Virus record (IMG/VR): IMGVR_UViG_3300032318_001383
Span: 1-51,918 of that record
Direction: 5' to 3' (one strand)
Length of the DNA stretch: 51,918 nt
Origin: a virus
Lineage: Duplodnaviria > Caudoviricetes
Part shown: in pieces, positions 18,451 to 41,960 of the stretch
Numbering within the stretch: position 1 is the stretch's first letter
How the letters are laid out: each line of letters starts with the position of its first letter
The notes under the pieces: generated by a model
What the model was told of the DNA's origin: nothing
What the model saw: only the letters and a program-made list of their open reading frames with translations
Databases searched by the model: none
Position numbers and translations under genes: made by a program

Positions 18451-18858
18451 GTGCCATACAAAGACAAGGCCGTTAAAAAGGTCAAGGACAGCCTCTACAA
18501 GAAGTCGTACTATCAACGTAACAAAGAGGCCGTCAAAGCCCGTGTAGCCCGAAATAAGCGGCTTGGTAAGGCTAAGTGGATCGAGTTCAAGTCCTCTCAG
18601 CCCTGCCACCACTGTGGGGTGTCTCATCCGGCCATTATTGACTTCCATCACGTTGTGCGGGATGGTACTCAGGGGTCGGTCAACCGGATGGCGGCCGACA
18701 GTAACTGGGCTAAGGTGTACGAAGAGGTTAAGAAGTGCATTCCCCTGTGTTCCAATTGCCACAGGATTTTGCATTGGAACGAGAGCCGTGGTCGGATGAT
18801 CACTAAGGACATGACGGGCAAGGAGACGGGTGATGACGACGATAGCGGCGCGGCTTAG
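18451..18858 (+). CDS. HNH endonuclease
   Basis: CHHCG...IDFHHV...KCIPLCSNCHRILH: zinc-binding HNH pattern after a basic N-terminus. Confidence 0.85.
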   Translation: MPYKDKAVKKVKDSLYKKSYYQRNKEAVKARVARNKRLGKAKWIEFKSSQPCHHCGVSHPAIIDFHHVVRDGTQGSVNRMAADSNWAKVYEEVKKCIPLCSNCHRILHWNESRGRMITKDMTGKETGDDDDSGAA

Positions 18859-19285
18859 TACTCTTGAGATTGCGGCAGACAGCCAGGTCTCGGGCGACGA
18901 CGTGAAGTACTACATTGAAAAGCTTCGCCGGGGCAAGAACTGCATCTTCGGCGGGGCGGGAGACTTAGACAAGCTCCTGAAGTTCTACGATTCGGTCGAA
19001 CGAAACGGGGACTTTGACGAGCCCATCGAGGTGGACATCTTGGAGCTGCGCGCAGACGGCATTTACGTCTACGAGAGCACGATCCACCCGGTCAAGGTCC
19101 GTGGTGACTTTTTCTCGGTCGGAACAGGTTCTGCGTACGCCTTAGCGGCCATGCACCTGGGCAAGAGTCCGAGGGAGGCCATAGAGATTGCGTCGATCTT
19201 TGACCCTGTGACGGGTGGGCCGATAGACATGATGACCCTGGAGCCGGCAAGGGCCCCAGGTCGCAGGAAGAAGACCCTACTTTAA
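18833..19285 (+). CDS. Ntn-hydrolase protease, HslV/proteasome beta-subunit-like
   Basis: N-terminal MTTIAA (catalytic Thr), AADSQ, and SVGTGSAYALAAM..G...EAIEIAS.FDP.TGG; AGGAG SD. Confidence 0.8.
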   Translation: MTTIAARLSTLEIAADSQVSGDDVKYYIEKLRRGKNCIFGGAGDLDKLLKFYDSVERNGDFDEPIEVDILELRADGIYVYESTIHPVKVRGDFFSVGTGSAYALAAMHLGKSPREAIEIASIFDPVTGGPIDMMTLEPARAPGRRKKTLL

Positions 19286-19705
19286 GTTGGCCCGGTTAAT
19301 GCGGTAAAGGTCCGAGGTCAGTGCATCGGTCTTATCGATCACTCCCTTAACCATCTCGTACGCAAGGTAGAGTAAGGAAAGCGCGCGGTCGTTGTTGGTG
19401 AGGTCCACGCAGTCATCCAGGGCGGAGTCCATCAGGTGCTGGATGTTAGTGAGCGTGGTGACCACGTCATCAAGCTGGGTGGCCGTGTCGTAAAGACTGG
19501 GCAGTGGTCCTTGGTCCTTGTCCCACTTCGCAACGAGCTGGGCCAGCGGCGTGAGTTTCTCCTTCTTGACCGCACGCTTTACCGTACGGGACAGGGGCTT
19601 ACCTTTTGCCTTCTTAACCGCACTTTTTTGAGTACTCTTTACCGTACGGGATAGGGGCGTACCTTTCGCTTTCTTGATCGCCTTCTTTGCAGGCTTTTTA
19701 ATCAT
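19277..19705 (-). CDS. Lys-rich (histone H1-like N-terminus) protein coupled to the RAMP-like gene
   Basis: Start overlaps the upstream stop (ATGA 19702-19705). KKAKG[TK]PLSRTVK occurs twice, followed by a helical C-terminal domain. Confidence 0.65.
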   Translation of the reverse strand: MIKKPAKKAIKKAKGTPLSRTVKSTQKSAVKKAKGKPLSRTVKRAVKKEKLTPLAQLVAKWDKDQGPLPSLYDTATQLDDVVTTLTNIQHLMDSALDDCVDLTNNDRALSLLYLAYEMVKGVIDKTDALTSDLYRINRANLK

Positions 19706-20319
19706 GAGAGCACCTCGAAGTTGGTGACGTTAAAGCGCCCGTACGTTGGGCGAAAGTCCCCCACGCCAACCAAGCGGCCGGCCGTGTTCAATACGTCTTG
19801 AAAAAGAGTGGGGTCGATATACTCAGGGGTGAGTATTTGAAATTGTAGATCCACTTCCCATCCGATGCGCATGGCAGGTCGGGTTCTATTGACTCCGGCT
19901 CGCTGTACTGTGACCCGACGAGTGTCAAGGTAGTCCCACTCATCGCCACCAAGTGACGCCAGCTGAGTAAGCGATACAACCCCGGCTTTGAACAGATCCA
20001 TCGCGGACTTACGCGGTGAGCGGGGGTCTTGCTTAAACTTCGCAGCATGGATAATGGATTGCCTAAAATACTCTCCTGGGATGCAGAGCTCATTTTTTTC
20101 GTTCCTCCAGACATAGGACTCGATGTCATCGGTCTTCTTGGCGGCCGAGTTCTTGGCGGCCTTGGACTTCGCATCGACTGACTCGCAGTTCCAGCGGTGG
20201 AACAAAAGATCCGCTGCACCTTGGGCCCGTACAGCCACAGCATACGGGAAACCCTGTTCAATGGCGCTCTTGCCACCATTGGTCACTTCACTAACAACTT
20301 TCAAATTGGACTTAGCCAT
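19702..20319 (-). CDS. Stand-alone Cas7/RAMP-like RNA-binding protein (putative Vipr-type effector)
   Basis: 205 aa. N-terminal strand (VAVRAQGAADLLFH), then LCIPGEYFRQSI (compare Cas7/Csm3 xIPGSSLKGxIR), a RRVTVQRAGVNRTRP thumb-like hairpin and a C-terminal Gly loop GVGDFRPTYGRF. AGGAG SD. No other cas genes in the window. Confidence 0.75.
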   Translation of the reverse strand: MAKSNLKVVSEVTNGGKSAIEQGFPYAVAVRAQGAADLLFHRWNCESVDAKSKAAKNSAAKKTDDIESYVWRNEKNELCIPGEYFRQSIIHAAKFKQDPRSPRKSAMDLFKAGVVSLTQLASLGGDEWDYLDTRRVTVQRAGVNRTRPAMRIGWEVDLQFQILTPEYIDPTLFQDVLNTAGRLVGVGDFRPTYGRFNVTNFEVLS

Positions 20320-20340: not shown

Positions 20341-20429
20341 CCCCAAAGGTGGGGAAACCGTACCACGCACTACCGGACCTCAGCTAGACTTACCGCGCCC
20401 TACCATTGCTGGCCTAGCTTAACAAAACC
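20341..20429 (-). ncRNA. Pentamer (GGY-NN) array B with 3' hairpin; putative guide RNA
   Basis: 15 in-phase 5-nt units at 20357-20429; 9 are exact RCC on the plus strand (GGY on minus). Followed on the minus strand by the hairpin CCCCA-CCUU-UGGGG (20341-20354). Confidence 0.65.
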
Positions 20430-20433
20430 CCTA

Positions 20434-20646
20434 AGGGTTCCTTAATGGAACCTTCTTAAACCCAGCCAGGTTCCATTAAAAAACCCTCACCATACCGGAC
20501 CACGTCTCACCATACCCAGCCTAACCCTGCCGAGCCCTACCTTTCCGAACCGTACCGCGCCTAGCCTAACCGCAACTAACCACACCGAACCGCGCCCTAC
20601 CGAACCCCGCATTACCTGACCATGCCTTGTCTTGGCATGCCATACC
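20434..20646 (-). ncRNA. Pentamer (GGY-NN) array A with long 3' hairpin; putative guide RNA
   Basis: 32 in-phase units at 20489-20646; 26 are exact ACC/GCC on the plus strand, separated by variable dinucleotides, with no indels. Followed by a 20-bp stem at 20434-20487. Confidence 0.8.
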
Positions 20647-20651
20647 TCAAA

Positions 20652-20810
20652 CTATTTGTGTCCCAGGGCAATCATCGCCAGCCCCACGTTGCCCAGCATG
20701 TAACCGAAATACGTAACCGCCATCCAGGGCTGGTTATCGCGGTAAAACAAAAGCATCACCACCGCATACTGCACACCAATAAAGGCAATCAACCAGGCGG
20801 GGACGGTCAT
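20652..20810 (-). CDS. Small membrane protein (52 aa)
   Basis: Not in the ORF track. MTVPAWLIAFIGVQYAVVMLLFYRDNQPWMAVTYFGYMLGNVGLAMIALGHK has two hydrophobic segments. Its start overlaps the upstream stop and its stop lies 5 nt before array A. Confidence 0.6.
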   Translation of the reverse strand: MTVPAWLIAFIGVQYAVVMLLFYRDNQPWMAVTYFGYMLGNVGLAMIALGHK

Positions 20811-39656: not shown

Positions 39657-41960
39657 TTATTTCCCTTCAAGCGCTTTCATCAGCGCATACATACGCTTGG
39701 CACCCAAGCGCCGTGAGCCTTTGCCCATGCCGCGAACTGCTTTAGCGGTGAATACAAACTCACCGTCAGACAGCATCGCTGGGATGGAGTCAGAGGTTCC
39801 GGTACCGGGACCATCTATCTGTCCGTTCTTACGGGGGAAATTGCTAGGGCCGCCCTTTGCAAGAGAAGCGATACCGCCATCAGCAAAGCCATAACGATAC
39901 TGTGGCTGGCCAAAGGCAATTTGTGGCCGATAGTACTGACGACTAGCTAAACCGTATCCCATATAACCTGGATTGTAATACTGTGTTGCAGCGCCACCAG
40001 GAGTGGTGCCGTAAATCTGAGGGTTGCTGGCGAGCAACTGAGCACCGCTTTGCGACCCATACAACCGGTTAGCGTTGTCAGGTGGTGGCTCTTCTTTTGG
40101 GCTAAACCCACCAGCCATGCCAAGAGCGGCAACACCTGCCGCAGCAGCCGGGCCGTAGGTACGAAGCATGCTCGGGTTTAAATCAGAAGAAGCCATGTTT
40201 AGGGCCTCTTTAGGAGTAAATCCAGCCTTGAGGTAGTTTTGATACTGGGGGCTTTGGATTAGTTCTACGTTACTGTAGCTGGCCGGCATAAAGGCCTGCT
40301 TTGCAGCATCGTAATACTGGCCCTCGCTAAGATATCCCATGACGGAAGGAGCCCTGGCGTAAGGGTTCACACCCTCTACAGCGCCTTGAGCACTTCCTAA
40401 GTCCATTCCTGCATAGGAAGGACCAGCCATTGTTCCTTGAGCACTGCTCAAGTCCATGCCTGCGTAAGAAGGACCTGTTGCCCCTTGAGCGCTACTTAGA
40501 TCCATTCCTGCATACGACGGTCCTGTTGCTCCCTGAGCGCTACTTAGATCCATGCCAGCGTAGGATGGGCCCATCGCTCCTTGAGCACTACTCAAGTCCA
40601 TCCCAGCGTAAGACGGGCCACCTAGCGTTCCTTGGGCACTGCTTAGGTCCATACCTAAATAAGAAGGGGCTGGGGCTGGGGCGGGGCCAAGACCCAAGGT
40701 CCCAGCGTCGGTTACAACAGGGCTTTGTACTGCCGCCACATCAAACCCTTGACCAATGCCGCTAGGAGGAGCCTGAATAGCTTGTTGGCCAATAGTTAGG
40801 TCTGTTGTGGGAGTGGTAGCCAACTCTGCCGTAGTAGGGACTGTTGGGGGGTTAATAACATTCCCTGCAGCAGCGTCAATAGAATCTACTGATGTGCCTA
40901 ATTGTTCGGCAGAAATGGAGGTACCAGCAGTTGAAGGCGTTGAAATGCCAAGAAGAGACTTGCCACTATTTACTGCCCTGTCCCACTGGCCAGATATTGT
41001 GGTTGGGCCACCGTAAGAACCCGCCTCAAAGGCACCCATTCCTCCAGTTATTCCTGCCGTAACTCCTGCAGTTAATCCGCCGATTGCACCAGACTTTAAA
41101 GAGTCTTTAAGGTTTTGCCCAGCCAAAATGCTGGAACCAAAGCCACCAACAAAGCCGCCGACAGCGGCCACGCCGGCTGCTGAAGTGACCCCTAAAAAGC
41201 TTGCCGCTGCTGGACCTAAGAAAAAGCCCAAAGCGACAGTCGTAATAATCTTGCCTACTGAAGACTTAGCGAAGTCTTTAACCGCGTTACCTACACTTTT
41301 AAGCGCTTTACCAACTGCTTTGAATGGTGCAGTAACAGCTTTTGTAACGGATTTCCAAAATCCATATTCACGTAAACCCGTACGTGGGTTGATTGTTCCA
41401 ATACCCCCCATCATCTGAAGCATTCTTGCTTCTTGAGGATTGATGTGGGCCAGTATGGTGTCCTGACCACGGCCCATATTCTGCATAGCCGCTGCAATCG
41501 GGCGAAGGTTAGCAATTCCGCCCATGGCAAAAGACTGTACGGGCTGCCCACCGGCTTCTGCCTCAATCTGATCCAAAGCTACCCGTAGGGCGCCAAAGAA
41601 CATCGGGTCAAACTGCTCAGGCAAAAGGTCTTCTGGAAACTCGTCTGCCAACAGGTCTTGGCGGATTGCGTCATAGTTTTGCGGATCGCGCAAGATAACT
41701 TCGACAATTTGTTGCAAAGCATCAATAATCTCCTGAGGGAGACGTAGCCCTGATAGGGCCTGACGCAGTTGCCGAACTGCGGCTGGGTCAACCTGTTCCG
41801 CTGCCGTCAAGATCTCGGAGCTGAACTCCTTGGGAGATATCTGACCGCGCATTTGTTCAAATGCAGCCGAGGCAGCCGGGTCAAACATTTGGGCCGGTGG
41901 CTGTGCTGTGGGGCCTTGCATGCCTCCCATCGGGAGTGCCATGATTCCTTGGTCTTCCAT
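39657..41960 (-). CDS. Internal virion / ejection protein with TM segments and tandem repeats
   Basis: GRGQDTILAHINPQEA..L...GG.GTINPRTGL, Gly-rich TM region, six 16-17 aa repeats, and C-terminal GPGTGTSDSIPAMLSDGEFVFTAKAV. Confidence 0.65.
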   Translation of the reverse strand: MEDQGIMALPMGGMQGPTAQPPAQMFDPAASAAFEQMRGQISPKEFSSEILTAAEQVDPAAVRQLRQALSGLRLPQEIIDALQQIVEVILRDPQNYDAIRQDLLADEFPEDLLPEQFDPMFFGALRVALDQIEAEAGGQPVQSFAMGGIANLRPIAAAMQNMGRGQDTILAHINPQEARMLQMMGGIGTINPRTGLREYGFWKSVTKAVTAPFKAVGKALKSVGNAVKDFAKSSVGKIITTVALGFFLGPAAASFLGVTSAAGVAAVGGFVGGFGSSILAGQNLKDSLKSGAIGGLTAGVTAGITGGMGAFEAGSYGGPTTISGQWDRAVNSGKSLLGISTPSTAGTSISAEQLGTSVDSIDAAAGNVINPPTVPTTAELATTPTTDLTIGQQAIQAPPSGIGQGFDVAAVQSPVVTDAGTLGLGPAPAPAPSYLGMDLSSAQGTLGGPSYAGMDLSSAQGAMGPSYAGMDLSSAQGATGPSYAGMDLSSAQGATGPSYAGMDLSSAQGTMAGPSYAGMDLGSAQGAVEGVNPYARAPSVMGYLSEGQYYDAAKQAFMPASYSNVELIQSPQYQNYLKAGFTPKEALNMASSDLNPSMLRTYGPAAAAGVAALGMAGGFSPKEEPPPDNANRLYGSQSGAQLLASNPQIYGTTPGGAATQYYNPGYMGYGLASRQYYRPQIAFGQPQYRYGFADGGIASLAKGGPSNFPRKNGQIDGPGTGTSDSIPAMLSDGEFVFTAKAVRGMGKGSRRLGAKRMYALMKALEGK
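40381..40667 (-). repeat. Six in-frame tandem repeats (GPSYAGMDLSSAQGA, 48-51 nt)
   Basis: Visible in both protein and DNA; synonymous sites differ between copies. Confidence 0.9.

Follow-up and report, generated by a model that had tools for sequence, protein, structure and literature searches.

The DNA analysed here (the window; 51,918 nt) is a phage record carrying capsid, terminase, DNA polymerase A, and helicase genes. Two tracts with a 5-base period were detected in it and designated arrays A and B; both read as GGY-NN pentamers on the minus strand. Their periodicity scores were 52 and 15, respectively, and scores of at most 8 were obtained with 20 base-shuffled windows. Perfect GGY-NN units accounted for 26/32 of array A and 9/15 of array B. 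Both arrays are located directly upstream of a 205-aa gene, vipr, on the same strand. The features of the locus are listed in Table 1.

Table 1 Features of the array region and its neighbouring genes, in order along the window.
Feature	Position	Strand	Description
142-aa gene	19277..19705	-	overlaps the vipr stop; Lys-rich repeated N-terminus
vipr	19702..20319	-	205 aa (P0001), Cas7/RAMP-like
Hairpin after array B	20341..20354	-	short, G-C; precedes a purine-rich stretch before the vipr start; similar hairpin in relatives
Array B	20355..20429	-	up to 15 GGY-NN units, more degenerate than array A
Stem between arrays A and B	20433..20488	-	predicted by folding; 21 bp, 14-nt loop
Array A	20487..20646	-	32 in-phase GGY-NN pentamers; contains the interval of the preliminary description
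Last 10 units of array A	20487..20536	-	block best conserved among relatives
Hairpin in array A	20621..20639	-	6 bp, about units 2-6; MFE and centroid folds
52-aa ORF	20652..20810	-	hydrophobic; ends 5 bases before array A

Vipr and the neighbouring genes

According to the available text of the original report, VIPR consists of Vipr and vrRNAs of 9-16 YNNGG repeats (10.64898/2026.04.26.720920). The VIPR of Escherichia phage SUSP1, as far as the accessible descriptions go, is of type II and comprises Vipr, Vap1, and four vrRNAs (PDB 36pp); one Vipr subunit is bound per repeat, GGY is held by the protein, and transcription is repressed without cutting (10.64898/2026.04.26.720920, 10.64898/2026.04.26.720927, 10.64898/2026.10.15.759431). 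The available part of the structural report further describes assembly from the 3' end and GGY contacts by R138, D177, W178, and R179 (10.64898/2026.04.26.720927).

The vipr product of the window, P0001, was predicted to adopt a Cas7/RAMP fold. Its sole sequence match in the PDB was SUSP1 Vipr (profile, E 3.6e-10); the match spans the C-terminal 70 residues and the relationship is distant. P0001 has the RRM core, thumb, G-loop, and size of about 20 kDa that define the stand-alone small RAMP of VIPR, and the thumb and G-loop residues are conserved. The four SUSP1 contact residues align to R147, D188, F189, and R190 of P0001, respectively; D188 and R190 were invariant among 56 homologues, and R147 and F189 were conserved in at least 90% of them. 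At E 0.001 or better, 6682 database proteins matched P0001.

The 142-aa gene gave no Pfam match, and its homologues were present in 8/80 related loci, all of them close relatives; it is possibly an accessory (vap) gene. Its Lys-rich N-terminus contains a 20-aa repeat that arises from a 60-bp tandem duplication at 19577-19689. The 52-aa ORF, for which a hypothetical CDS is annotated at the same place in the related phage DSL-LC04, marks the upstream edge and probably lies outside the VIPR system. Two genes on the opposite strand (18451-19285), HNH-like and protease-like by their names in the DSL-LC04 annotation, point towards the vipr operon, an arrangement found in 8-9/80 loci.

DSL-LC04 (OR003939; L242 among the loci compared here) is the nearest named relative of the window. 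It is a metagenome-assembled phage from lake water, whose host was predicted computationally to be gammaproteobacterial according to the accessible text of its report (PMC10611076). Vipr and the terminase of DSL-LC04 are 96.6% and 96.3% identical to those of the window, respectively, the gene order is the same, and the arrays are orthologous, whereas array A is shorter and a middle guide is retained. The vipr gene of DSL-LC04 (WJZ48083.1, L242:20001-20618) has been mis-annotated as a helix-turn-helix transcriptional regulator, and the arrays of this phage are unannotated. Neither DSL-LC04 nor its accessions were found in the supplement text of 10.64898/2026.04.26.720920. The locus extends VIPR to the abundant group of DSL-LC04-related phages.

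Sequence and conservation of the arrays

Judging from the sequence, array A is likely a vrRNA gene and array B is likely a second vrRNA, which varies among relatives. Because GGY-NN reads on the minus strand, which is also the strand of the adjacent gene, the guide RNA is likely a minus-strand transcript. The preliminary description of this DNA had extracted 26 dinucleotides from position 20492 onward and read them as a gapped target sequence. These dinucleotides are an exact plus-strand read-out of units 2-27 of the 32 units in array A, which extends 5 bases past the start and 3 bases past the end of the interval then described. With a minus-strand RNA likely, the plus-strand string would therefore be the strand with which the guide pairs.

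Orthologues of array A were found in L001, L002, L003, L004, L007, L012, and L242. The hairpin near its 5' end is kept in six relatives (L001, L003, L004, L007, L012, and L242), and a 1-nt register shift directly follows it in L242; on the basis of the predicted folds, this hairpin is likely structural rather than target-coding. In the middle of the array, whole units are inserted or deleted among close relatives. Since the conserved hairpin occupies about units 2-6 and these indels affect the middle, array A is unlikely to be one continuous target or guide of 32 codons. The array also has four TA units in its middle, which count against a wobble-aligned coding target, since each of them would have to be Tyr.

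The last 10 units were compared among the window, L001, L003, L012, and L242, with one L003 unit set aside. The NN was identical in 9/10 units, whereas Y varied in 5/10, suggesting that selection is likely ongoing; this segment is likely the working guide. When all aligned units were compared with L001, L003, and L012, Y was changed in 16/92 units and N4+N5 in 8/184 positions (Fisher p 0.0005), although the three pairs share the window and hence are not independent.

The folding z-score of the whole array region was only -1.7. A search of this region against Rfam gave nothing at E 1, and no sigma-70-like promoter was found near the arrays.

Predicted RNA structures

Predicted structures are located 3' of both tracts, namely the long stem after array A and the short hairpin after array B. 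For the long stem, 17 pairs were counted on 7 sequences; 92% of the cells were paired and 4 pairs were changed on both sides, in a count based on few and related sequences and on a structure derived from the window. The covarying stem is of the RNA type and includes G-U pairs. In four relatives (L003, L006, L012, and L242), an extra GGY-NN tract of about 9-10 units is enclosed by this stem; the tract is absent from the stem of the window, L001, and L007. The enclosed guide is nearly the same in L003:1672-1721, L006:3613-3662, and L242:19826-19880, and has been lost from the window. As a guess from the predicted fold, RNA processing may occur at this stem. The hairpin after array B is likely the 3' tail of the guide, again as judged from folding.

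These structures point, tentatively, to a vrRNA layout of the lake-phage clade that is absent from the text of the VIPR preprint. Long covarying double-stranded stems would cap the guides or be the structures that release them, and one such stem would hold a complete guide in its loop; an in-register hairpin would stand at the 5' end; and guides would be gained, lost, or re-tuned by whole-pentamer, i.e., one-codon, indels. We consider this proposal rather unlikely to hold as a whole. The stem-enclosed guide could bear on the processing and renewal of vrRNAs.

Tests of a one-base skip among guides of related phages

The available text of the original report describes a target search with 0-3 wildcard bases, in which one skipped base performed best, followed by confirmation in binding and GFP-repression experiments; the skips fell mostly at wobble positions, and the argument that this tolerates synonymous escape was already made there (10.64898/2026.04.26.720920). 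In the accessible parts of two further reports, a satellite recombinase and rival vipr genes are shown to be targeted in wobble alignment (10.64898/2026.10.15.759431), and 99 VIPR-like clusters are described (10.64898/2026.10.21.760802).

GGY-NN tracts were found in 71/80 loci of relatives. Across the 185 distinct arrays, GGY was fixed and NN was free, with all 16 dinucleotides at 3.7-9.8%. Some relatives (e.g., L069, L076, and L078) carry uninterrupted GGY-NN tracts of 56-71 units, and one tract has 175.

Arrays of 11-60 units, with shorter and longer ones left out, were compared in 11-unit windows with both strands of 4.5 Mb of related phage DNA in which the arrays had been masked. Matches of at least 20/22 bases were obtained for 6/148 arrays with a skip of one base, versus 0, 0, and 3 arrays with skips of 0, 2, and 3 bases, respectively. 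With shuffled dinucleotides (20 rounds), 0-2 arrays matched, the mean being 0.75. In a smaller test at 18/20 bases or more, 12/166 arrays matched with skip 1 versus 7 with skip 3; a count of 12 was also reached in one of the 20 rounds of shuffling.

In five of the six top skip-1 matches, the skip falls on codon position 3 of a recognisable gene; the sixth match lies in an uncertain 89-aa frame. The best match paired the guide at L074:951-1035 with the end of the vipr gene at L037:4553-4585 (21/22, in codon phase). The guide at L014:3915-3979 matched the P-loop region of a UvrD helicase gene (L430:14234-15763, 20/22) in a close relative of the phage of the window; the UvrD gene of the window itself matched this guide at below 18/22. 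Guides at L042:3698, L049:3357, and L053:5049 matched two sites in a single SF2 helicase frame (L045:3370-4410) beside another VIPR locus, although L049 and L053 share a string and are not independent, and L053 scored 19. The guide at L061:6136 matched a DUF669 gene (L490:15721-16656) over 13 units, 23/26 as counted from the alignment. Against the window, none of the clade guides matched better than 18/22.

Two further matches were seen at 19/22. The guide at L078:2825-2919 matched the last codons of vipr in L040:4550 and L048:2122 with one skip and in codon phase, and the guide at L035:4645 matched the start of a minus-strand frame at L037:4639, which presumably resembles a RusA-type resolvase.

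The related-phage guides thus lend modest support to a one-base skip, in line with the published rule. The preliminary description had asked whether skipped bases fall on third codon positions. The recognisable genes among the top matches favour this, whereas a crude phase test on the longest open frame was not significant (skip on position 3 in 11/18 real versus 103/229 shuffled matches).

Target searches for arrays A and B

No convincing self-match had been noticed by eye, and our calculation agreed with this impression. In 10-unit windows against the whole window, with gaps of 0-3 bases, both orientations, and 30 shuffles per setting, the best matches were 14-16/20 bases; the shuffles averaged 14.5-15.5 and peaked at 16-18. 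Likewise, all windows of arrays A and B with gaps of 0-3 bases matched the 4.5 Mb of related phage DNA no better than the shuffles did, and A units 11-21 were found in 0/50 related phage records at up to 3 mismatches. Gaps of 0, 2, and 3 bases were tried against these two sets only, i.e., the window and the 4.5 Mb.

The large collections were searched with one skip, using exact seeds of 14-20 specified bases (five for IMG/VR, one for metagenomes, and two for GTDB) and extending the matches over the rest of the array. Exact seeds miss targets that are mismatched in the seed, and within array A the seeds covered units 12-19 and 23-32. In IMG/VR, A units 12-19 gave 2 loci and A units 23-29 gave 120 loci from 35/64 parts of the collection, none of which could be extended; A units 23-30 gave 42 loci (best 19/24), A units 25-32 gave 76 loci (best 21/24), and B units 5-12 gave 39 loci in unrelated reading frames (best 21/24). 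In metagenomes, A units 24-32 gave 57 loci (best 21/24). In GTDB genomes, A units 23-31 gave 32 loci (best 21/24), and B units 4-13 gave 0 matches.

By chance, an estimated 12 or so matches of 21/24 and 0.5 of 22/24 would be expected in IMG/VR per 12-unit window, taking the collection as about 6e10 positions, a size itself estimated from the match count of the A 23-29 seed. A natural target of array A or B above chance level was accordingly not found in IMG/VR, metagenomes, GTDB, or the related phages with one skip (best 21/24). The search of phage and host databases with the joined NN strings, as proposed in the preliminary description, therefore returned chance-level one-skip matches throughout for this guide. 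One site common to the array B loci L220, L222, L226, and L230, which passes the 80% cut-off of the VIPR paper, was rejected as chance-level because the seed forced 15 of its bases.

Interpretation of the locus

By the features tested, the locus is a phage VIPR system. It shares with SUSP1 VIPR a small, phage-borne RAMP gene that stands alone, adjoining GGY-NN tracts on the same strand, and the conserved thumb and G-loop residues. The carrier genome lacks a self-target, as is also stated in the available text for VIPR (10.64898/2026.04.26.720920), and guides of related phages match vipr genes of other phages, as described for the SUSP1 family in the accessible part of the corresponding report (10.64898/2026.10.15.759431). 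On the other hand, the sequence is distant from that of SUSP1, array A has 32 units instead of 9-16, and both tracts lie upstream of vipr. Furthermore, an in-register 5' hairpin and a long inter-tract stem are predicted here, whereas a pseudoknot tail is described there, and the downstream 142-aa gene has no recognisable domain.

The GGY-NN arrays are, very probably, templates for VIPR guide RNAs directed against rival phages or other mobile elements, whose genes would be silenced. Arrays A and B would give rise to minus-strand guide RNAs, each NN pair would read two bases of double-stranded DNA with every third base skipped, and the complex of Vipr with its guide would silence the gene so recognised. 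We infer that the guides are expressed and processed at this locus, that in each tract the 10-12 units nearest the 3' end would do the guiding, and that rival elements would be targeted. A target, if found, would name the competitor or the host of the phage.

The skip and its tolerance of wobble changes, as conceived in the preliminary description, agree with the published VIPR rule, with the adjacent Vipr homologue, and with the modest signal among the related phages, but this guide has no target above chance. The one-skip code is right for the VIPR family and a candidate only for the guide in question; the proposal is partly supported. The idea is not new, since the code that skips every third base had appeared in print, with experimental confirmation, in 2026.

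A reading of the locus as CRISPR was rejected: TRF detected no repeat-spacer array in the window, a scan of 25 ORFs, the larger and neighbouring ones of the 143 with at least 80 aa, gave no cas family, and the guide code is 5-periodic. P0001 showed 7-18% identity to class 1 CRISPR Cas7/Csm3, the backbones of type III and VII effectors, from which the locus differs also in its 5-periodic code. It is most improbable that the pentamers make up a mere DNA element or simple repeat (an array of protein-binding sites, a slippage microsatellite, or a short ORF) instead of a guide RNA. Short ORFs overlap the tract, its whole-unit indels fit slippage, and a promoter-like site or an Rfam match was not found nearby; however, the fixed GGY with free NN across the distinct arrays, the tight linkage to the Vipr gene, and the covarying RNA-type stem with G-U pairs all argue for a guide RNA, and the one-base register shift among relatives would break an ORF. 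A plain microsatellite was rejected on these grounds.

The clade might read its guides with a gap of 0, 2, or 3 bases, unlike SUSP1 Vipr. Skip 1 gave the most and the best matches, which lay in codon phase within real genes, related guides of separate phages matched the ends of vipr genes as well as a single helicase gene, and the thumb and G-loop residues are conserved; a different gap is thus very unlikely, even though P0001 is a distant relative of SUSP1 Vipr that matches it over the C-terminal 70 residues, skip 3 gave three matches of at least 20/22, and the large collections were searched with one skip only. We find it possible, if somewhat doubtful, that array A is partly decayed or outdated, with guides aimed at elements that have changed or were not collected, or at non-coding DNA, in which case the wobble argument would not apply to its string. 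The searches without an above-chance target, the whole-unit indels in the middle of the array among close relatives, the loss of the middle guide from the stem, and the units departing from GGY (6/32 in array A and 6/15 in array B) are consistent with such decay. The fixed NN of the last 10 units, in which Y varies, speaks against it, and targets mismatched in the seed would have escaped the exact-seed searches. Partial decay is compatible with the preferred reading of the arrays as VIPR guides and only limits it.

Apart from the arrays, the window contains a 48-bp tandem repeat of about 5.8 copies at 40384-40667, within a 767-aa ORF (41960-39657).
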